A stretch of 64,000 nucleotides of DNA, taken from the NCBI GenBank assembly GCA_041650755.1, contig JBAZKN010000002.1:5030-69029 (forward strand). The letters are read 5' to 3'. Below are positions 2,849 through 59,388 of the stretch, piece by piece; position 1 is the stretch's first letter, and each line of letters starts with the position of its first letter. Made by a program: the position numbers and the translations under genes. The notes under the pieces were generated by a model, which saw nothing but the letters and a program-made list of their open reading frames with translations, had not been told where the DNA came from and searched no databases. The DNA comes from Patescibacteria group bacterium. GTDB lineage: Bacteria > Patescibacteriota > Patescibacteriia > UBA1558 > GWA2-36-10.

Positions 2849-2872
2849 GGTAATGCGTGTCTATTTTTATTT

Positions 2873-2955
2873 TGGTGCCCCCAGGAGGACTCGAGCCTCC
2901 AACCGTTTGCTTAAGAGTCCGCCAGCTGGCGATCTATCAACTGAGCTATGAGCGC
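2873..2955 (-). pseudogene. tRNA-Lys(CTT)-like gene disrupted by a palindromic insert; probable pseudo-tRNA
   Basis: Reverse complement GCGCTCATAGCTCAGTTGATAGATCGCCAGCTGGCGGACTCTTAAGCAAACGGTTGGAGGCTCGAGTCCTCCTGGGGGCACCA. Its acceptor, D, T arms and 3' anticodon half are near-identical to the intact tRNA-Lys at 3373-3449. The 5' anticodon stem is replaced by TCGCCAGCTGGCGGA (a 14-nt perfect palindrome), so the anticodon helix cannot form. Confidence 0.5.
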
Positions 2956-3116
2956 ATCAATAAATTGCTAATTGTTAATTGATAATAGTTAATTGTTTTT
3001 GGTACTCCCTGAAGAGCGGCAATTATTAAATTAGCAATTAACTATTTACAATTAAATAGTAGTGCGGCCGGTAGGAGTCGCCGCGCCCGCTGCCTAGTGG
3101 CAGCTTAGGCGGCCAG

Positions 3117-3150
3117 GGAACCCACAATCCCTTGGTCCGAAGCCAAGTGC
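3117..3150 (-). repeat. Partial duplicate of the tRNA-Arg(TCG) anticodon arm plus variable/T region (tRNA fragment)
   Basis: cttggtccgaagccaag (17/17) recurs 70 bp from the same sequence inside tRNA-Arg, followed by a GGGTTC T-arm remnant. Embedded in a GC-rich 120-bp non-coding stretch (3061-3168). Confidence 0.5.
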
Positions 3151-3168
3151 TCCCCGCCTGCCATAACC

Positions 3169-3243
3169 TGGTGCCCTCGTCAGGAGTCGAACCCGAAATT
3201 CTTGGTCCGAAGCCAAGCGTGATATCCATTTCACTACGAGGGC
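3169..3243 (-). tRNA. tRNA-Arg (anticodon TCG)
   Basis: Reverse complement GCCCTCGTAGTGAAATGGATATCACGCTTGGCTTCGGACCAAGAATTTCGGGTTCGACTCCTGACGAGGGCACCA. Cloverleaf with anticodon loop CTTCGGA. CCA is encoded. Confidence 0.85.
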
Positions 3244-3372
3244 CTAGGATAATGAATTTTGATGCCCCTCGACTTCGCTCAGGGCACTCGATTTATAATA
3301 CGCAATGGTCGTAGGTGCTAATAGCACTGAAGACCACGAGTGAGACTTTTGCGAAGCGAAAGGCGAATCGAG

Positions 3373-3449
3373 TGGTGCCCCCAGTAGGATTCGAACCTAC
3401 GACCGTTTGCTTAAGAGGCAACTGCTCTACCAACTGAGCTATAGGGGCA
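3373..3449 (-). tRNA. tRNA-Lys (anticodon CTT)
   Basis: Reverse complement TGCCCCTATAGCTCAGTTGGTAGAGCAGTTGCCTCTTAAGCAAACGGTCGTAGGTTCGAATCCTACTGGGGGCACCA. Anticodon loop CTCTTAA. Confidence 0.85.
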
Positions 3450-3526
3450 AATGCGATAGAAAAATATAGCTTATTATAAGCTATACGGCAAGTAGTTTAC
3501 TATAAAATTTATGAAAAATCAAGGCC

Positions 3527-4494: not shown

Positions 4495-5529
4495 TTAGGA
4501 AGTGTGGTTGAGATAAGCTAGAGCGGTAGCTTCATCGATAATATTATTCTCCAAAAGTTCTTTGATGTTTTGCTCCAAGCTAAACATGCCTTCATCGGCG
4601 CTGGTTTGGATGACGCTTTTAATCTGGGGTATTTTATTTTCTCGGATGATGTTGGCAATTGCCGGAGTGTTGACCAATATTTCTCGCACAGCCACGCGGC
4701 CGCCGTTTATTTTTGGCACTAATTGTTGGGAGATAATGCCGCTTAAGGAGATGGACAGCTGCAGGCGGACCTGAGCCTGCTGATGAGGCGGAAAAACATC
4801 GATAATACGATCAATAGTCTGGGCGGCGCTATGAGTGTGCAGGGTAGCCAGCACCAAGTGGCCGGTTTCTGCCAGAGTGATGGTAGTGGCGATAGTTTCT
4901 AGATCACGCATTTCGCCGACCATGATGACATTTGGGTCTTGACGCAGGACATGTTTTAAGGCTCCATCAAAACTCAGCATGTCGGTGCCTAGTTGGCGCT
5001 GCTTGATAATGCTTTTTTTTGGTTGATGGATAAATTCTATTGGGTCTTCGAGAGTAACAATATGAGCAGTACGGCTTTGGTTTATTTTTTCTATCATGGC
5101 AGCTAGAGTAGTAGACTTACCGCAGCCGGTCGGACCAGTGACCAGGATCAATCCGCTGGTGCGGGCAATCAGCTGCAGGACAATTTCTGGCAGGCCAATA
5201 TCTTCTATCGAGGGTATTTCACCAGAAATGACCCTGGCGACTAAACCGGGGTTATCTTTTTCCCAGTGGAGATTGACGCGGTAGCGGGAGTATTCGGCTA
5301 TTTCATAAGAAATATCCAGCTCTCTTTCTTCGGTGTATTTTTTTTGCTGTCGTTCAGTCAAAATACCAAAGATCATTTTTTCCGCTATTTCTCTAGTGAC
5401 CACTTCGGTGTCAGGCATGAGTTTCAGTTCGCCATCAATACGCAAGATGGGTGGCTTGCCAACAATGATGTGCAGATCAGAAGCTTTGTTTTTGGTGGCG
5501 ATTTTGAAAAGGTTGTTGATGTTAAGCAT
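4495..5529 (-). CDS. pilT: Type IV pilus retraction ATPase PilT
   Basis: 344 aa. Walker A GPTGCGKSTT, Asp box and His box. The length and motifs are typical of PilT rather than PilB. Confidence 0.85.
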   Translation of the reverse strand: MLNINNLFKIATKNKASDLHIIVGKPPILRIDGELKLMPDTEVVTREIAEKMIFGILTERQQKKYTEERELDISYEIAEYSRYRVNLHWEKDNPGLVARVISGEIPSIEDIGLPEIVLQLIARTSGLILVTGPTGCGKSTTLAAMIEKINQSRTAHIVTLEDPIEFIHQPKKSIIKQRQLGTDMLSFDGALKHVLRQDPNVIMVGEMRDLETIATTITLAETGHLVLATLHTHSAAQTIDRIIDVFPPHQQAQVRLQLSISLSGIISQQLVPKINGGRVAVREILVNTPAIANIIRENKIPQIKSVIQTSADEGMFSLEQNIKELLENNIIDEATALAYLNHTS

Positions 5530-17070: not shown

Positions 17071-17136
17071 AATTTACCCTGTTAAATAACTCCGCTTAGC
17101 GGAGTTGCCGCGCGGCGGCATTTAACAGGGTAAATT
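17071..17136 (+). repeat. Structured 66-bp element, copy 1
   Basis: 17-bp perfect outer inverted repeat aatttaccctGTTAAAT / ATTTAACagggtaaatt enclosing hairpins aactccgc-ttag-gcggagtt and gccgc-gcg-gcggc. Ends 21 nt before the DUF2207 ATG. Confidence 0.7.
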
Positions 17137-17157
17137 TGTAAGATTAATAAAGTATTT

Positions 17158-23853: not shown

Positions 23854-23924
23854 ATAATGTTAAGTCGTACATAGACAACTATTCTGTAGCTTTTCTTGGC
23901 CTTTTGGCCAGAAGGGAGACCATA

Positions 23925-24959
23925 ATGAGCGGGACAGTTCGTCTAGTCAAGAAAATCGTGACTCATGTCAAGCCCCATCTGGATGAGCTGGTGGCCATTT
24001 GGCTGCTCGTCCGGTGGGGGGAGAAACACTTCCCCGGCATCAACACTGTGCCAGTAGAGGTCTGGCGCAAGGGGTTGGAGTCCGCCGACGGCCGCTCCTT
24101 TGAGGAGCATGAGGACGAAGGCACGATGTTCATCGGGATTGGCGGCGGCCAGTTCGATGAGCACCCGACCAACGGCACTGACGATCTGTCTGGTGAGTGC
24201 GCGGCCACTCTGGTCGCCAAGCGTCTGGGCATCCAAGACGACCCGGCTCTCGAAAGGATTCTGGACTTCGTTCGTCGGATTGACACCAAAGGTGGCGCCA
24301 ATCCTTGGGACATCTCGGCTGTCGTTAAGGCGGCCAACGAAGTCGGCAAAGGTCTGCCGGAGCTGCTCACCTGGGTGTTCTTGGCGCTTGATGCCAAGTA
24401 TGAACAGCAGGTCAAGTTCCTCGAGGCAGAGGCCGATGCCAACATCGCCCAATGGGATACGGTCGGCTCTGTGCGGGTAGCTACCGCAGAATCTGACAAC
24501 CAGCAGGTCTACAAGGTGCTTTTCACTAGGGGTGCGGCGGTGGCGATTGTTCGCCGGCGTCAGGATGGCCGAGTGGCCATCTTCACGCAGAAGCGTGACA
24601 ACATCAGGCTCACTGACGCTGTCAGGATCATCCGCCGCTTGGAGCAGAAGGCTCGCGGCGATGTCAGGACTACCAACTGGAAGGAGCTGGCAGCGCCTGG
24701 TTCCATCGACGCTGTGGCGCGCTGGTACTATCTTAAGGAGGGTGAAATGCTGCTGAACGGCAGCGATACCCACCCCGATACGCCGGCTACCGGTCTGTCC
24801 CTTTCCACCATCCGTCAGGCGGTCATCTTGGCCCTTTCTGGCGAGATGATCTGCTCGCAGGCCAATGTCTGCGACGGGAAGTCCTGCAAGTGGTATCAGC
24901 TCGGCCTGAGCCGGTGCCAGACAATTCGCTACAGAATGTCGAGTGGCCAATCGCAGTAG
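23925..24959 (+). CDS. MYG1/UPF0160-like metal-dependent hydrolase, high-GC cassette G
   Basis: N-terminal KKIVTHVKPHLDELVAIWLL fits the MYG1 T-H-x-x-x-H-x-D-E signature. GC about 60%. SD present. Terminator downstream. Confidence 0.45.
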   Translation: MSGTVRLVKKIVTHVKPHLDELVAIWLLVRWGEKHFPGINTVPVEVWRKGLESADGRSFEEHEDEGTMFIGIGGGQFDEHPTNGTDDLSGECAATLVAKRLGIQDDPALERILDFVRRIDTKGGANPWDISAVVKAANEVGKGLPELLTWVFLALDAKYEQQVKFLEAEADANIAQWDTVGSVRVATAESDNQQVYKVLFTRGAAVAIVRRRQDGRVAIFTQKRDNIRLTDAVRIIRRLEQKARGDVRTTNWKELAAPGSIDAVARWYYLKEGEMLLNGSDTHPDTPATGLSLSTIRQAVILALSGEMICSQANVCDGKSCKWYQLGLSRCQTIRYRMSSGQSQ

Positions 24960-32643: not shown

Positions 32644-33083
32644 CCGATTTTTTTTATGCGTCGGGCATGCCTTTCTTCTCCGGGAAAATCTGTTTTAAGA
32701 AAAGTCTCGACTAAGTGTACGCCTTGAGTAGTACTTAAGAAGCGGCCGGCCAAACAGAGGACATTGCTGTCGTTGTGCTCGCGTCCGACCATGACAGCGC
32801 TGACCGAGTAGCCTAAGATAGCCCGGACTTTTTTGAAGCGATTGGCGGCAATGCACATGCCGTGCCCGCTGCCGCAGATCAGTATGCCGAAATTTTTTGG
32901 CTGGCGGCTGATGGTCTGGGCAACCTTTTTGGCAAAATCAGGATAATCATCATCTGACGTTAGCGTGTCAGCGCCAAAGTCCACATAATTGATTTTGGTT
33001 TCAGATAAATATTGTTTGATAGCATTTTTCAAGCGCAAGCCAGCATGATCGGCCCCCAGATAAACTTTAAATTCTTTTTCCAT
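32640..33083 (-). CDS. rpiB: Ribose-5-phosphate isomerase B
   Basis: GADHAG and GILICGSGHGMCIAANRF motifs. Start at MEKEFKV (33083). Overlaps the rpe start by 4 nt. Confidence 0.8.
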   Translation of the reverse strand: MEKEFKVYLGADHAGLRLKNAIKQYLSETKINYVDFGADTLTSDDDYPDFAKKVAQTISRQPKNFGILICGSGHGMCIAANRFKKVRAILGYSVSAVMVGREHNDSNVLCLAGRFLSTTQGVHLVETFLKTDFPGEERHARRIKKIG

Positions 33084-33213
33084 AAGAATATTTTTACTTT
33101 TGTTTATATGGTTAAACTTTAGCATACTTTGGATTTTTTTACCATTGACGTAATGGCTGTTTATTGTTATACTTGGCTGTGTTTATTTGAAAAAATGGAC
33201 ATTTTACATATTA

Positions 33214-33250
33214 GCCCCGGTAGTTCAATGGATAGGAACATTAAGATATA
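33214..33250 (+). pseudogene. tRNA 5'-half fragment (acceptor and D arm only)
   Basis: GCCCCGGTAGTTCAATGGATAGGAACATTAAG parallels the 5' half of the adjacent tRNA-Arg(TCT), then diverges. No matching 3' half is found. Confidence 0.45.
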
Positions 33251-33325
33251 AGTGCCTTCCCCCGCAAAATGTATGAGCGAAGCGAATACTATTTTGCGCG
33301 GTCCCGCAACACGAAATTTTTTTAA

Positions 33326-33400
33326 GCCCCTATAGTTCAACGGATAGAACAGCGGCCTTCTAAGCCGTCGATGTAGGTTCGATTCCTACTGGGGGCACCA
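33326..33400 (+). tRNA. tRNA-Arg (anticodon TCT)
   Basis: GCCCCTATAGTTCAACGGATAGAACAGCGGCCTTCTAAGCCGTCGATGTAGGTTCGATTCCTACTGGGGGCACCA. Confidence 0.85.
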
Positions 33401-33514
33401 CCGATAGTTTTTGCGGGACTCCGCCAGTTGGCGGACTCGCAGAGAGAGTAAACCCCTGTGGTAATAGTAGTTATGCACCTTTACATTTTTTACCACAGAT
33501 GTTAATATATCCCC

Positions 33515-33958
33515 ATGACATGGGAATATATAGCAGGTTTTTTTGATGGCGAAGGATCCATAGTTTACAATGGTAGTGGTTTTAGATTAACAATCGCCCA
33601 AACGAACCTTACGGTGTTAGATAGTATAAGTAGGTTTACAAAAATTGGTCAGGTTATAAAGGTCACCAAACGTCAGGTTCACTGGAAAGATAGTTGGGTA
33701 TATTATATAAGCAAACAGGAAGACATTTTATTTTTTGTGAGACATATCCAAAATTTTTCAATAGTTAAAAAACAAAAAATAAATATAGTATTGCCGAGGC
33801 TCATAAAAGCAGTTTCCAATAATAGAGATAGGATTTTAAAGAGACAACTATTGACTAAATCAGCTAAAGCTCTGAGAAAAAATGGTTTAAGTTATAGAGA
33901 AATAGGCAAGAGATTAAATATGGATTTTGGACAAGCGCGTCGTTTGATAAAAAGATAA
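33515..33958 (+). CDS. Free-standing LAGLIDADG homing endonuclease with C-terminal HTH
   Basis: MTWEYIAGFFDGEGSIVYNGSGFRL: single LAGLIDADG motif (IAGFFDGEGS). C-terminal GLSYREIGKRLNMDFGQARRLIKR. 147 aa. No flanking intron or intein context found. Confidence 0.7.
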   Translation: MTWEYIAGFFDGEGSIVYNGSGFRLTIAQTNLTVLDSISRFTKIGQVIKVTKRQVHWKDSWVYYISKQEDILFFVRHIQNFSIVKKQKINIVLPRLIKAVSNNRDRILKRQLLTKSAKALRKNGLSYREIGKRLNMDFGQARRLIKR

Positions 33959-33970
33959 GATTATTTACAT

Positions 33971-34048
33971 GGTGGCAGTAGCTCAGTTGGTTAGAGCATC
34001 GGGTTGTGGTCCCGGCGGTCGTGGGTTCGAGACCCATCTGCCACCCCA
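33971..34048 (+). tRNA. tRNA-His (anticodon GTG) with encoded G-1 and CCA
   Basis: G-GTGGCAGTAGCTCAGTTGGTTAGAGCATCGGGTTGTGGTCCCGGCGGTCGTGGGTTCGAGACCCATCTGCCAC-C-CCA. Confidence 0.85.
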
Positions 34049-34086
34049 TCGAAGATCCTGAGCGAACGTAGTGAGTCGAAGGATCA
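34043..34086 (+). repeat. 44-bp direct repeat, left copy (overlaps the last 6 nt of tRNA-His); attL-like
   Basis: accccatcgaagatcctgagcgaacgtagtgagtcgaaggatca, identical to 35761-35804. Each copy is followed by a similar hairpin plus T-run. Confidence 0.85.
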
Positions 34087-34350
34087 AAAAACACCCAATT
34101 TTCTTTGAGTGTTTTTTGTTCGTTATAATTTGACTAAATATATAATAATTGCTATAGTATCTTGTTGTTTTTCATATATTTCGTAGTCTGCTTTTTGTTT
34201 ATTTATATGAGTAAAAAGCAGGCTAAGAAAACGCTTAGTCTTTGTTCCGTTAAATAATTTTTTGTGTACGAAGGGGGGTGAACCAGACCGTTGTTCTGTC
34301 GGCAATCTCGTGTGCTAGGGTTCTGGATTCATTCAAGGAGGTATGGGAGG

Positions 34351-35613
34351 ATGTCGACCATGCTGCAATCCCAGGTCATCGAAAGGCTTCTGAAGTACGC
34401 GCGGGTCAACACCCGTTCGCTTCAGGCCATGCCGGGCGAGGAGCTCCCTCACCCAAGCAGTCCGGAGCAGGTGGTCTTGATCGACCTGTTGCTCTCCGAG
34501 CTGTCCGACATGGGGGTGCCGTCCAACTGGACCAGGAAGCTCGAAGACGCTTCGTTCCTGATCGAGATCCCCGCGACCGAGGGCCACGAGAACGCCCCGC
34601 ACGTCGTTCTGGCTGCGCACGTGGACACCTACTTCGGCTGTCCCGGCGGGGCCAACCCGATCATCCACGAGTACCAGGGCGGCGACATCGCGCTCCCGAA
34701 CGACAACGTGGTCATCCCGGCCTCGGACCTTGCCGGTCTCGAGGGCAAGGGGATCATCACCGCTGACGGCACCACGCTGCTCGGTGGCGACGACAAGTGC
34801 GGAGTCGCGGCCATCATGACCTTCATCGAGAGCATGCTGGCTCACAATCTGCCGCACGGTCCGCTGACCATCTGGATCTGTACCGACGAGGAGGTCGGCG
34901 AGGTCGGCGTGAAGTTCCTGCCTTCGGGCACGGCGGAGAAGTGGGACTTCTTCTGGACCGTGGACGGGGAGCGTCTCGAAGTCGTGGACATTGGCTGTTT
35001 CTACGGCTCCTCGGTCGACGTCGAGTTCATCGGCAACGATTCCCATCCGGGTGTCTCCGGCCACTCGCTCAAGCCCGCCCACTACGCCGCCTGTCGCTTC
35101 GTGGATCAGCTCGGCCTGGCGCCGACGCCCTGGCGGACCAGCGGCGAGGAGTCGTTCATCTACGTGCCCTCTCTGCCCGCCTGCACGGCCGGCAAGTCGA
35201 CGATCAAGGTCTTCCCGCGTACCTTCCGCCAGGAAGAGATCCCTGAGATGCGGGAGACGATCCGGCTCGTGGCCGAGGAGGCGGCTTCGCACTACGGCGT
35301 CCAGGCCGTGGTCAGTGAGGCCAAGATCCTCTACGTCTCCACCGAGGTCGCGATCGACCAGAACCGCCACCTGTTGCAGCCGGGTCTGGACGCGATCCGG
35401 AAGTTCTGGGTCGAGCCCAAGCTGCATCGCGTGCGCGCTGGCACCGACGGCGCCATGCTGAACATGACGTACCCGAAGATCCCGTCGCCGAACATGGGAG
35501 CCGGGGCCCGCAACTTGCACGGCGTTCGCGAGTTCGTCGTGCGGGAAGAGCTCCAGCTCGTCCCGGAGATCATCTCCGAGATGATCGGAATCTACGCGAC
35601 CATGTCGCGCTGA
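34351..35613 (+). CDS. M20-family peptidase (peptidase T/PepT-like tripeptidase), high-GC cassette H cargo
   Basis: HVDT, GGDDKCGVAAIM, TDEEVGE, GTDGA and NLHGVREF motifs of M20B. GC about 62%. SD AAGGAGG 9 nt before the ATG at 34351. Confidence 0.75.
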   Translation: MSTMLQSQVIERLLKYARVNTRSLQAMPGEELPHPSSPEQVVLIDLLLSELSDMGVPSNWTRKLEDASFLIEIPATEGHENAPHVVLAAHVDTYFGCPGGANPIIHEYQGGDIALPNDNVVIPASDLAGLEGKGIITADGTTLLGGDDKCGVAAIMTFIESMLAHNLPHGPLTIWICTDEEVGEVGVKFLPSGTAEKWDFFWTVDGERLEVVDIGCFYGSSVDVEFIGNDSHPGVSGHSLKPAHYAACRFVDQLGLAPTPWRTSGEESFIYVPSLPACTAGKSTIKVFPRTFRQEEIPEMRETIRLVAEEAASHYGVQAVVSEAKILYVSTEVAIDQNRHLLQPGLDAIRKFWVEPKLHRVRAGTDGAMLNMTYPKIPSPNMGAGARNLHGVREFVVREELQLVPEIISEMIGIYATMSR

Positions 35614-35760
35614 TCCGCCATCGTGAGAGGTTCGCAACCCAAACTGCCGTCTCAACAATCCTTGCAGGTGAGAGATGGCGTTTTCATTTATTTAAAATTG
35701 TAGATAGGGTATATGATAAGTATTTGAAATTAGTATAGTCCCGATACGTTTTACGACGCG

Positions 35761-35804
35761 ACCCCATCGAAGATCCTGAGCGAACGTAGTGAGTCGAAGG
35801 ATCA
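35761..35804 (+). repeat. 44-bp direct repeat, right copy; attR-like
   Basis: Perfect match to 34043-34086. Followed by tcaccc..gggtgg ttttttg terminator-like hairpin. Confidence 0.85.
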
Positions 35805-35868
35805 CAAAATCACCCTGAGCGTAGTCGAATGGGTGGTTTTTTGATATAATGGAGAAAATAAATTCACC

Positions 35869-36105
35869 ATGAAATACTTTGTGATAATTGCTATAAGTAT
35901 GATTTGGGCTGGCGTTATTGCCTTTTATTTTATAATGAAGAAATATTCAACTAAAGAGGAATTGGCTAATTGGAAATATGTGCCTATTTTAAATCTTTGG
36001 TCTACAAACTGGGGTTTTGTTAAAAGGTATTGGAAAACTTTTATTATTGCATGGTTCATAGTATTGATAGTTGCGTTATGGTGGTCATTAACTAAAAATT
36101 CATAA
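35869..36105 (+). CDS. Small membrane protein (78 aa)
   Basis: Two hydrophobic helices. AT-rich host-like codons. Confidence 0.45.
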   Translation: MKYFVIIAISMIWAGVIAFYFIMKKYSTKEELANWKYVPILNLWSTNWGFVKRYWKTFIIAWFIVLIVALWWSLTKNS

Positions 36106-36142
36106 TATTAATTTATAATCATTATTTTTATTGGGTCTTATT

Positions 36143-36172
36143 AAAAAACCCTCAGGTGACGCGAGGGTTTTT
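36143..36172. terminator. Bidirectional terminator
   Basis: aaaaaaccctc aggtgacgc gagggttttt. Confidence 0.7.
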
Positions 36173-36178
36173 ATAAAA

Positions 36179-36448
36179 TTATATATTATCCTGTTTGTCT
36201 TTTTGGCTGTTAGCCTTAATTATCGGCAAAAAATACATGATCAATCCAGATATAGCCATGCCCAACAATAATATACCAAAGATAATGCTCATCTGGTTGT
36301 GCAGATATTGAGCTAAGCTAAAATTTAAAAAATCAAACAAGTGGGGGTATTTTAGGATTAGGCCAGTAATCATCATGATTAGGCCTGAGCAGGCCGTGAC
36401 CAGAGTCAGATAGCGGTGAACCTTTCTAGATATTAGATAGATATTCAT
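36179..36448 (-). CDS. Small membrane protein (89 aa)
   Basis: Three hydrophobic segments. Confidence 0.45.
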   Translation of the reverse strand: MNIYLISRKVHRYLTLVTACSGLIMMITGLILKYPHLFDFLNFSLAQYLHNQMSIIFGILLLGMAISGLIMYFLPIIKANSQKDKQDNI

Positions 36449-36457
36449 AGAAATAAA

Positions 36458-36868
36458 TTATGGAGTGTATTGATCACCTATTTGGCCAATGAATAATTGT
36501 CCGAGAGCATTGATAGCTTTACTGCTCTGATGTTTTTCCTGGCTGGAAAATTGTCCGCTTACGTCTTGGCCGCAATATGGCACGATCAATTGATCGGGTC
36601 GGGGGTGTTGGTCTAAATAATTGGTAGCGTCATAAACTTTATTATTGATAATCAGCCAGCAGTCGTTGCTAGTGTCGTGCTTAGCCACTTCAGCGGCAGA
36701 TAGGGTGCTTTGGCTGCCTGGGTTAATGTTGTTTACCTGATTGTTGTTGGTTAAATTAAAATTCGGCAAATTTTTGCCAGCTTGATTTTTGTAGTGCACA
36801 GCCATGGCTATTGCAAATATTACTACAGCCACGGTTATTAATACGCCAATAATCAGTTCTTTTTTCAT
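36458..36868 (-). CDS. Membrane-anchored cytochrome b5-like heme-binding domain protein
   Basis: KVYDATNYLDQHP resembles the cyt-b5 VYDVTxFxxxHPGG motif. Start at MKKELIIGVL (36868). Confidence 0.45.
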   Translation of the reverse strand: MKKELIIGVLITVAVVIFAIAMAVHYKNQAGKNLPNFNLTNNNQVNNINPGSQSTLSAAEVAKHDTSNDCWLIINNKVYDATNYLDQHPRPDQLIVPYCGQDVSGQFSSQEKHQSSKAINALGQLFIGQIGDQYTP

Positions 36869-57814: not shown

Positions 57815-58452
57815 TTTTTTAGTAATTCAATAACTTCTTGATCGGTCGTTTGCTCAAATTCCTCATAAAAATTTCCCACAGCGCCAAAGTAGTCTGGCGC
57901 CTCCAGATAAACCAATTTATCAACTAATTTTTTTATTGTTTGAGCTGTGTCGCGGGCAATCACCGGCACGGCTACAATTATTTTTTTTGGTTTTTGTGGG
58001 CCGACAGCCAAAAGGGAGGCTCGCATAGTAGCCCCGGTAGCTATACCATCATCTACTAAAATAGCGGTTTTATTTTTTAGTATCAGCGGCGGCCGATTGG
58101 CTCGGTATATTTTTTGGCGTCGCGCGGCTTCTTGCTTGGCGGCGGCTATGCTTTGCTCAAGATAAACATCAGATATGCCGTAAGCAACGATTGAACCATG
58201 ATCCAGGAAAGCTTCTCCGGCCAGAGTGACAGCACCAATAGCAAATTCTGGGTTTTGCGGGGCACTGATTTTTCTGGGTACGATGATATCGAGCGGTAAA
58301 GCTAATTTTTTGGCAACTGCCGCGGCGACTACTACACCGCCACGCGGCAAACCTAAGATGATTGCCTGCCGGTCGTTTTGGCAGGCCTTTAATTTGTCAG
58401 CTAAGTGCCGGCCAGCCGTTTGGCGATTGGTAAATATCATAATTTTTGCCAA
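57802..58452 (-). CDS. Type I phosphoribosyltransferase-family protein
   Basis: PRPP-binding loop ILVDDGIATGATM. 216 aa. Confidence 0.65.
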   Translation of the reverse strand: MAKIMIFTNRQTAGRHLADKLKACQNDRQAIILGLPRGGVVVAAAVAKKLALPLDIIVPRKISAPQNPEFAIGAVTLAGEAFLDHGSIVAYGISDVYLEQSIAAAKQEAARRQKIYRANRPPLILKNKTAILVDDGIATGATMRASLLAVGPQKPKKIIVAVPVIARDTAQTIKKLVDKLVYLEAPDYFGAVGNFYEEFEQTTDQEVIELLKNHLL

Positions 58453-59225
58453 TATTTTTGAGTGGCACGGGGATTTTGTAAGTGGAGACCAGATTGGACA
58501 TCTCTACCCAAGCCACCTTGACGCTTTATTTGGTGGGCTAGAGTATGGCGGAGGATTTGCGGGGTAATGATAAGCGGCGGCCTTAGTCGGCGGGCATATT
58601 TATCAATAATCCTTTCTACTGATCTAACCGACAGATGATTGACGACTGGATTTTTTTGCGCCCGATCAAAGTTTATAAATAACCAGGGGCTATTGTCGTG
58701 CCGCCAAGCTAAATATTTTTCCAAGTCCGCCCAAGTGAGAGGATCCAAATGAATGCTTTGCCCGTTGATAAATATTTCTTGTTTAATAGTATCGATATCG
58801 TGGCGTTTTAATTTGATTAGTTGGCTGACTTTTAAGCCGCTGTAGTAGAGTATTTCCAGCATAGCTTTATCGCGCCGGCCGATCAGGCTTGTTTGATCAG
58901 AATCAGCAGCCAAAAAAGCAGTCAGCTGTTTTTGGCTTAGCACTTTGACGGCCGGCGCTTGATAGGAAAGCAAGGCAAACTTAAATTTGACCTGTAAAAA
59001 CTCCAGATAGTCGTTGATGATAATAAAATGCAGGTTGAGGCTGCCGACATTTTGGCGCGAGCGTAATAATCGCTCTTGATATTTTTTTAGATTAGCAGTG
59101 TTTATTTTTTGTTTGCCCAAACTAAGCAGAAATTTATCTATATGCCAGAGATAATTTTTAATGGTCAAAGGTTTTAGGCCACGTTTTTTGAGCAGATTTT
59201 GGTATTTGTTTATATTTTTTTCCAT
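58437..59225 (-). CDS. Tyrosine site-specific recombinase (XerC/XerD-like, short form)
   Basis: N-terminal core-binding-like LKPLTIKNYLWHIDKFL, R...HxxR box (ILRHTLAHQ), and C-terminal GGLGRDVQSGLHLQNPRATQKY with the catalytic Tyr. The start codon is 2 nt from structured-element copy 2. Confidence 0.75.
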   Translation of the reverse strand: MEKNINKYQNLLKKRGLKPLTIKNYLWHIDKFLLSLGKQKINTANLKKYQERLLRSRQNVGSLNLHFIIINDYLEFLQVKFKFALLSYQAPAVKVLSQKQLTAFLAADSDQTSLIGRRDKAMLEILYYSGLKVSQLIKLKRHDIDTIKQEIFINGQSIHLDPLTWADLEKYLAWRHDNSPWLFINFDRAQKNPVVNHLSVRSVERIIDKYARRLRPPLIITPQILRHTLAHQIKRQGGLGRDVQSGLHLQNPRATQKYWQKL

Positions 59226-59226
59226 A

Positions 59227-59292
59227 AATTTACCTTGTTAAATAGTTCCGCAAGGCGGAACTGCCGCTTTGTGGCATTTAACAGAGTAAATT
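59227..59292 (+). repeat. Structured 66-bp element, copy 2
   Basis: aatttaccttGTTAAAT ag ttccgc-aag-gcggaa ct gccgc-ttt-gtggc ATTTAACagagtaaatt. Same architecture as copy 1, with compensatory changes in the inner stems. Confidence 0.7.
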
Positions 59293-59388
59293 TTATCATA
59301 AAACGACACAAAAAGAAAAACTCGCCGCGTGAGTCCACCTGATGGTGGCGCAGCGAGCTTGAGGGAGAGGGGGGGGTGGGCGGGGTGC

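Follow-up and report, generated by a model that had tools for sequence, protein, structure and literature searches.

How did a single GC-rich peptidase gene come to lie behind a tRNA gene of a bacterium of the candidate phyla radiation (CPR), between two identical direct repeats that enclose no recombinase gene? The gene is found in contig JBAZKN010000002.1 (GenBank assembly GCA_041650755.1) of a Patescibacteria group bacterium, of which a stretch of 64,000 nt was analyzed (contig positions 5,030 to 69,029, forward strand). This stretch is referred to as the window, and all statements on the host genome apply to the window. The repeat-bounded segment, referred to as the islet, follows the tRNA-His gene and carries one gene, for a PepT-like M20 metallopeptidase of 420 aa. 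An earlier note on this DNA, made by a model from the letters alone, had proposed a foreign insertion at this place. The data support this view of foreign DNA that was inserted recently 3' of tRNA-His, lies between direct repeats and encodes no recombinase. The GC content at third codon positions (GC3) is 0.89 in the peptidase gene compared with a mean of 0.40 and a maximum of 0.51 in 18 neighbouring genes, and a relative with the same gene order (locus L138) lacks the insert. With synonymous sites so unlike the host composition, the gene is taken to have been acquired very recently, from a genome far richer in GC.

The repeat ACCCCATCGAAGATCCTGAGCGAACGTAGTGAGTCGAAGGATCA is a 44-mer with two exact copies on the plus strand of the window, R1 at 34043-34086 (attL-like) and R2 at 35761-35804 (attR-like, identical to R1), which enclose 1,674 nt. 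No third copy was found in the window with up to 3 mismatches allowed (0 expected from shuffles). A repeat finder extended the pair to 52 nt at 96% identity with one mismatch per side (left GCC before R1 and GCG upstream of R2, right A/C). The tRNA-His(GTG) gene with encoded CCA is at 33972-34048 on the plus strand (ARAGORN; Rfam tRNA 62.5 bits). R1 starts with the final 6 nt of this gene (ACCCCA, encoded CCA included), continues with TCGAAGAT and the 26-nt hairpin core CCTGAGCGAACGTAGTGAGTCGAAGG, and ends with ATCA. Each copy is followed by a terminator-like structure on the plus strand. Hairpin 1 (34085-34118) forms the left end of the insert and consists of an A-run, a ACACCCAA/TTGAGTGT stem and a U-run; the 78-nt segment folds at -20.1 kcal/mol (z -3.2). 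Hairpin 2 (35801-35845) has the loop CTGAGCGTAGTCGAA at 35815-35829, a shortened version of the repeat core. The earlier note had read an internal sub-repeat into the 44-mer; what is present is rather this shorter motif variant, in the loop of the terminator after the second copy. Downstream of hairpin 2, on the host side of the junction, are a TATAAT box and an orphan membrane-like open reading frame (ORF) of 78 aa (35869-36105, plus strand, GC 0.29), with no homolog besides itself in 5.8 billion clusters.

Inside the repeats, the left part of the insert (34087-34268) is AT-rich and contains a promoter-like site, TTGACT-17-TATAGT with an extended -10 TG (34130-34158, plus strand, sigma-70-like, 10/12), which is the top-scoring site of this kind within 33400-36200. 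It is followed by a GC-rich foreign block (34269-35680, plus strand), delimited by composition profile and fold. This block comprises a leader of about 80 nt, a Shine-Dalgarno sequence AAGGAGG (34335-34341, 9 nt before the ATG at 34351), the peptidase coding sequence (CDS, 34351-35613) and a 3' hairpin CGCCATC...GATGGCG with a U-run (35616-35680). An AT-rich spacer of 80 nt (35681-35760) completes the insert and ends with ...CGACGCG at R2. The insert is thus a self-contained expression cassette: terminator, promoter, Shine-Dalgarno leader, PepT-like gene, terminator. The long ORFs of the islet are the peptidase gene and its antisense or alternative-frame shadows, with no recombinase ORF among them. 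One of these shadows, an antisense ORF of 441 aa (34333-35658), was rejected as a gene: codons rich in GC3 are expected to leave such a frame open, and the GC-richest homologs are free of stops in the codon-aligned antisense frame, where others have 2-9. The earlier note had described the perfect repeats, their overlap with the last 6 nt of tRNA-His, a hairpin plus T-run after each copy, a promoter in the AT-rich stretch, a perfect Shine-Dalgarno sequence and the lack of an integrase inside the islet, and all of these agree with the gene calls, folds and promoter scan given here.

The contrast in composition is sharp. The peptidase CDS has 64.8% GC, the whole insert 57.9% and the remaining window 42.7%, and a 1.2-kb segment over the gene is 6.5 standard deviations above the window mean. 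The earlier note had called the gene an M20B peptidase at 62% GC; the length of 420 aa holds, and the GC value is replaced by the one above. The protein matches NCBIfam NF003976 (PepT) over its full length (E 2e-72), with 244.2 bits against a cut-off of 255; for TIGR01882 the score is 177 against a cut-off of 286. Because it falls below these curated PepT cut-offs, the peptidase is PepT-like and not an equivalog. It resembles the E. coli and Salmonella PepT enzymes (PDB 1vix and 1fno; MEROPS M20B) in its length and in full-length alignment (E 6e-46 and 5e-44, respectively), but it is only about 30-35% identical to them and belongs to a separate clade found on CPR or unnamed metagenome contigs. 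Across 34 aligned clade members, the residues H90, D92, D147, E180, E181, D205 and H390 do not vary. They are taken to be the M20 metal ligands and catalytic Glu known from PepT. With these invariant residues and the full-length PepT match, the gene looks functional. By its homology to PepT, the enzyme would probably give an amino-acid-auxotrophic episymbiont extra tripeptide-cleaving capacity.

An abrupt GC shift in metagenome-derived data raises the question of a chimera, in which a GC-rich contig of another organism was joined to a CPR contig via the shared 44-mer. The same structure is present in an independent MEGAHIT k141 contig (236 kb, ENA ERZ27247363, k141_3127890) with 1 SNP in 21 kb, and both junctions are also on the NCBI contig of the metagenome-assembled genome (MAG; 191,846 nt), which gives two assemblies with the integrated form. 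With k=141, more than threefold the length of the repeat, real sequence must have covered the tRNA-His/R1/insert and insert/R2/host junctions. In Logan (k=31), a contig of 1,734 nt corresponds exactly to window 34057-35790, i.e., the insert plus 30 nt of the repeat at each end. Its termination within the repeat on both sides could be taken for a sign of a chimera, but its ends are the expected branch point of a 31-mer graph at a 44-nt repeat, and they are compatible with linear and circular forms. Two further points speak against a chimera: AT-rich CPR-like DNA extends 182 nt and 80 nt inside the repeats, and the closest relatives of the peptidase are likewise on CPR-like contigs. We consider a chimera scarcely credible. 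Look-ups with the exact proteins of two flanking ORFs returned the same two assemblies and no further strains.

Comparison of tRNA-His loci in relatives, which the earlier note had suggested, was carried out with L138 and its variants L140-L142. L138 is the best relative with enough DNA and was found via RpiB (68% identical). Two genomes with a more similar RpiB (82-86% identical; GCA_964591505.1 and GCA_964540095.1) have contigs that stop short of tRNA-His. It keeps the order POR, PFO-beta, hypothetical protein, large Ig-like protein, rpe, rpiB, tRNA-Arg(TCT), tRNA-His. Its tRNA-His gene ends with ACCCCA and is followed by T, AAAAAC, a hairpin, TTTTTG and then a Phage_holin_4_2-family gene, with no R repeat, no hairpin motif and no peptidase downstream. 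No homology above shuffles was detected between this downstream region and either flank of the islet. The spacer between tRNA-Arg and tRNA-His in L138 is 76 nt. In the window the same spacer contains a free-standing LAGLIDADG homing-endonuclease-like ORF of 147 aa (33515-33958, plus strand, Pfam LAGLIDADG_3 E 2.6e-6, GC 0.32, GC3 0.26), located 85 nt upstream of R1. This ORF is absent from L138 and L140-L142, as are the insert and the repeat, and it represents a second insertion at the same tRNA pair. The structure of L138 supports insertion at a variable tRNA flank. In the lineage of the window, DNA has entered on both sides of tRNA-His, and synteny ends at this gene.

The two tRNA genes themselves differ in conservation. 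The tRNA-Arg(TCT) genes are identical at 73 of 75 positions (window 33326-33400, L138 1326-1400). The tRNA-His genes are only about two-thirds identical (window 33971-34048, L138 1175-1250), and it is the acceptor stem, the D arm and the T arm that differ. One lineage may have exchanged its tRNA-His gene for another. In the L138 spacer, a CCATTCGACTCG…GTTCATGG motif directly follows the CCA of tRNA-Arg.

The bracketing repeat proved to be composite. An exact scan of JGI metagenome contigs with its 26-nt core (window copies at 34057-34082 and 35775-35800) detected the core in 41 contigs with GC contents of 0.32-0.68 (loci L090-L130). The commonest context is gtcatCCTGAGCG…GAAGGatct. The bases flanking the core at +/-1 can pair in 37 of 38 distinct instances (T-A 19, C-G 13, T-G 5), compared with 30.5 expected, a value reached in 0 of 2,000 shuffles. 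This covarying closing pair points to a conserved stem-loop similar to repetitive extragenic palindromic (REP) sequences, in which the core makes up the loop and the upper part of the stem. In four contigs (L109, L110, L120 and L123) the motif lies 63-78 nt 3' of a tRNA gene in the same orientation, and it is near a tRNA gene in three more. It also occurs in local multiples, as 64-nt tandem copies (L099 and L112) or as paired variants about 35 nt apart (L090 and L097); the two tandem copies in L099 precede a 16S rRNA gene. The L120 motif lies 63 nt after tRNA-Gly and is directly followed by an ORF for an 86-aa GIY-YIG nuclease (2933-3226, Pfam E 1e-16), which hints at a link of the motif with small nuclease genes at tRNA flanks. 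In L130 (4120-4330, minus strand) the motif abuts the 5' end of an intact tRNA-Leu gene, and a partial duplicate of this gene (the first ~31 nt) is found upstream with an inverted motif copy at the D-loop position. The window contains two full copies, one short variant and two looser variants near other tRNA genes (33266-33299 and about 3266-3285). A search of Rfam over 33000-36500 returned nothing at E<=1 except the tRNAs, and nothing over the motif in 12 other loci; a full-text literature search for the motif sequence found no paper, and the 26-mer is absent from IMG/VR. This stem-loop motif, found beside genes for stable RNAs, is thus widespread and undescribed.

The sequence outside the core is a different matter. 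The 14 nt to the left of it (ACCCCATCGAAGAT, tRNA end included) and the ATCA to the right are common only to the two window copies, as judged against 41 other core contexts and all 143 fetched loci. Because these 18 nt are private to R1 and R2, the 44-nt identity is a local duplication and not a chance meeting of two random family members. The earlier note had named a common dispersed tRNA-associated repeat as the finding that would speak against its proposal; this description fits the 26-nt core, with its 41 contigs, and does not fit the whole 44-mer.

A few related structures were noted beside tRNA genes. The arrangement in L130 is another motif-associated duplication of a tRNA end. In the window, a tRNA-like 5' fragment (agccccggtagttcaatggataggaac…) at 33205-33299 is followed by a hairpin with the loop TGAGCGAAGCGAA just upstream of tRNA-Arg(TCT); a similar structure is found in the relative L137. 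At 2860-3450 (minus strand), a CCCTGAGCGAAGTCGAGGGG hairpin is found after tRNA-Lys(CTT) and tRNA-Arg(TCG), and a partial copy of the anticodon arm of this tRNA-Arg is located at about 3125-3145. A tRNA-Lys-like gene at 2873-2950 has a 15-nt insertion in the D region and received no ARAGORN call.

How, then, did the islet arrive? The reading we favour, to which we give somewhat less than an even chance, is that the islet was recently inserted in the manner of a cassette, through recombination at the hairpin site next to tRNA-His. An incoming circular or circularizable DNA would have carried one 44-nt segment (tRNA-His end plus REP-like hairpin), and a Campbell-type single crossover with the identical resident segment would have left one copy on each side of the insert, in the attL/attR geometry. 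Such a crossover is the simplest account of the two identical copies. R1 is fused to the tRNA gene, and R2 lies between insert DNA and host DNA. The crossover could have been made by a site-specific or hairpin-recognizing recombinase acting in trans, as for an element resembling a cis-mobilizable element (CIME) or a gene cassette. Ordinary RecA-type homologous recombination on 44 or more nt of identity is equally possible. The passage through a circle, the direction in which the gene moved, the involvement of an enzyme and any mobility today are inferred. The earlier note had also thought of site-specific integration, of mobilization in trans and of a satellite-like mini-island; these would go beyond what the locus shows.

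A number of observations weigh against this account. The repeat is not a private att site, its core being generic, and as the core is often found in local multiples, the two copies could predate the gene. The tRNA part of the repeat is only 6-9 nt, which is atypical for tRNA-targeting integrases. A Pfam survey of the window detected a single recombinase, a Xer-like tyrosine recombinase of 262 aa (58437-59225, minus strand) located 22.6 kb from the islet; no cognate integrase and no element bearing one was found in the window. The repeats bound a unit that exceeds the GC-rich block by 262 nt, and AT-rich host-like DNA lies inside both repeats. The sequences after R1 and R2 share a weak similarity over about 95 nt (AAAA·CACCC…GTG·TTTTTTG…TATAAT…ATAATTGCTATAGTAT), with a score that was equalled or exceeded in 4 of 500 shuffles and by 9 of 486 segments taken at random from the window (p about 0.01-0.02). 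This similarity could reflect a homologous origin of the flanks (local duplication) or merely alike terminator/promoter architecture. L138 is distant and has a different downstream gene, and its locus therefore represents a variable region and not a precise empty att site. Among related peptidase loci, no nucleotide homology outside the CDS was found between the window, L003, L006 and L007. Flanking repeats are also lacking there: none of >=14 nt in L003-L007 and none of >=9-10 nt in the tRNA-adjacent L006 and L135 (L131, L132 and L143 stood outside this comparison).

Several of these points are what one would expect if the copies were older than the gene. A local array of REP-like hairpins would have formed 3' of tRNA-His, for example through slippage that duplicated about 47 nt in tandem, the tRNA end among them, and the peptidase gene would have been inserted between the copies later by illegitimate or hairpin-targeted recombination. 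The local multiples in L099, L112, L090 and L097, the third, shorter variant 10 nt past R2, the partial tRNA duplications with the motif elsewhere (L130; window 2860-3160) and the host-like DNA inside the repeats all agree with this course of events. It would require, however, an insertion exactly at the boundary of two tandem units. A tandem R-R arrangement is found in no fetched locus with the 44-mer, and the relative L138 has no R copy at all. We consider it rather unlikely. A long target-site duplication, in which a nuclease, for instance a homing or structure-specific one, made a staggered break around the hairpin and both ends were filled in upon capture of a linear foreign fragment, would account for a duplicate that is perfect and gives way to only weak similarity beyond about 52 nt. 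The stem-loop could direct paired nicks, the LAGLIDADG ORF is close by, and the islet has neither terminal inverted repeats nor a transposase. Even so, insert ends that bear a promoter and a terminator look like an organized cassette and not like a random fragment, and the similarity past the repeats would not be expected. To our knowledge, no known system duplicates 44 nt on insertion of a 1.7-kb segment, which also counts against this mechanism, and we regard it as doubtful.

The islet could also be a non-autonomous unit of the REP/RAYT (REP-associated tyrosine transposase) or IS200/IS605 (PATE-like) kind, with two direct hairpin ends mobilized by an HUH (Y1) enzyme in trans. Identical hairpins in direct orientation at both ends would be consistent with such a unit, for which a target duplication is not required, and the core behaves as a REP family would, being dispersed over many genomes with a covarying closing pair and located beside small nuclease genes in some contigs (GIY-YIG, L120). 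On the other hand, no Y1, RAYT or transposase is present among the scanned ORFs of the window, the other peptidase loci are without such hairpin ends, and the identity spans the tRNA end, for which duplication of a site is a better account. This origin is distinctly improbable in our view. The repeat was also considered as a dif/Xer site, attC, CRISPR repeat or casposon end. These readings were rejected because of its geometry: the arms lie 20 nt apart, only two copies are present, the "spacer" would be 1.7 kb long, and inverted terminal repeats are absent.

There is also a more general reading, to which we give little chance. The stem-loop (loop GAGCGAACGTAGTGAGTCGA, covarying closing pairs) would be a portable recombination site that very different bacteria share and that clusters at tRNA and rRNA genes. 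Self-contained cassettes, the peptidase gene among them, could leave as a loop between two copies and integrate again wherever a copy resides, via a hairpin-recognizing enzyme in trans or via the shared identity.

The peptidase family provides a wider context. The proteins closest to the islet peptidase (40-78% identity) all come from unnamed metagenome contigs or from MAGs labelled Patescibacteria, Parcubacteria, Kerfeldbacteria or Magasanikbacteria, and ordinary bacterial PepT proteins form the next tier at 33-36% identity. No donor was found in the databases, the top match being 78% identical. The donor is not obviously non-CPR, because the clade is seen only in CPR or unnamed contigs and the four examined members of its closest subclade are GC-rich islands in AT-rich genomes. 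Close relatives are absent from IMG/VR, GenBank phages and PLSDB plasmids. A phage or plasmid origin was rejected, as there is no IMG/VR relative and the phage and PLSDB PepT genes are only 28-33% identical. A scan of a genome collection with the clade alignment, whose patterns are generic PepT motifs, gave only loci of 28-35% identity among the matches listed.

Eight independent contexts of clade members were compared, four in the closest subclade (67-78% identity) and four more distant. In the closest subclade the gene is a strong GC-rich island in AT-rich DNA in four of four contexts. Besides the window (GC3 0.89 for the peptidase, 0.40 for its neighbours), these are L003 (0.69 and 0.37), L006 (0.66 and 0.41) and L143 (0.74 and 0.49). 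The distant members L007, L131, L132 and L135 have mildly raised GC or none. Three of the eight genes lie on the 3' side of a tRNA gene, 142-303 nt away: His (window), Trp (L006) and Gly (L135). Both the tRNA adjacency (3/8) and the strong GC anomaly (4/8) are small numbers. In L132 the peptidase gene follows TraG/TrwB-like, DUF87 and AAA genes, a locus distinct from the islet (L132 and L133 are one contig with differing gene calls). In L135 it is beside a cluster of six tRNA genes. A common mobile cassette end was rejected since the compared peptidase loci share no ends, and no high-GC reservoir lineage for the subclade was identified among the examined contexts. A CPR-restricted PepT-like clade has clearly been passed around.

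Compared with known systems, the islet has some features of a tRNA-associated genomic island. Direct repeats are present at the tRNA 3' end, with an overlap (6 nt) much shorter than usual. The composition is atypical and the insert is absent from a relative, albeit a distant one in which the downstream gene is also different. An integrase at one end of the element is missing. CIMEs are elements that have kept attL and attR and lost the genes for integration and transfer (PMC5704250). The islet likewise is bounded by att-like direct repeats, one of them at a tRNA 3' end, has no integrase or transfer genes and would require a recombinase in trans. Functionally it most resembles small, integrase-less, att-flanked tRNA islets of this CIME-like type. 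It differs in its size of only 1.7 kb with one gene, and in a repeat that takes 6-9 nt of the tRNA gene and is mostly downstream hairpin. It also has no recognizable remnants of an integrative and conjugative or integrative and mobilizable element: none were found in the 1,674 nt, all of which is accounted for by one expression cassette.

Single-gene modules moved in trans include pdif modules on Acinetobacter plasmids, "integron mobilization units" flanked by miniature inverted-repeat transposable elements (MITEs) and integron cassettes. The islet is like them in having one self-contained gene between two short structured sites and no enzyme of its own. Unlike a pdif module, however, its site is not dif-like and has its arms 20 nt apart. 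Integron cassettes differ in that the islet repeats are identical direct copies including a tRNA end and not attC sites, and no IntI-type gene is present in the window. The islet copies are direct and not inverted, and transposase-type target duplications are absent. The core itself is comparable to REP sequences and bacterial interspersed mosaic elements (BIMEs): it is a short intergenic stem-loop with a covarying closing pair, found in local multiples and beside terminators, with short identity usable for recombination. Classical REP families, as in E. coli and Salmonella, are species- or genus-specific; RAYT transposases and REP sequences at join-points of duplications are known for such repeats. 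The 26-mer, in contrast, is identical across contigs of 0.32-0.68 GC, prefers the flanks of tRNA and rRNA genes, and has no RAYT in the window.

What is new here is a recent single-gene cassette in a CPR genome whose bracketing repeat is built on a stem-loop common to very different organisms. Little is known of how genes are gained by CPR bacteria, which are tiny symbionts not yet cultured. The locus provides a clean and datable example, with synonymous sites that show no drift toward the host composition, of a single metabolic gene gained as a ready-to-express cassette at a tRNA flank and without its own recombinase. If the hairpin is a recombination site, a light-weight exchange of cassettes could proceed via a motif common to many lineages. 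If that site is portable, it would explain why the peptidase subclade appears as a GC-rich island at different tRNA flanks of several AT-rich CPR genomes. Otherwise, the locus still documents that, in this CPR genome at least, the flanks of the tRNA pair accept inserted DNA, with a LAGLIDADG ORF to the left of tRNA-His and the hairpin motif plus the peptidase gene to its right.

Two minor observations were made elsewhere in the window. A second, milder GC-rich gene (23904-24959, 351 aa, no Pfam match) reaches a GC content of 0.58 in a 1.2-kb segment, the highest outside the islet, and may likewise have been acquired. A palindromic element of 67 nt, AATTTACCYTGTTAAATA…CATTTAACAGRGTAAATT, is found at 17071-17137 and 59227-59293; the two copies are 81% identical, and the second abuts the start of the Xer-like recombinase gene.

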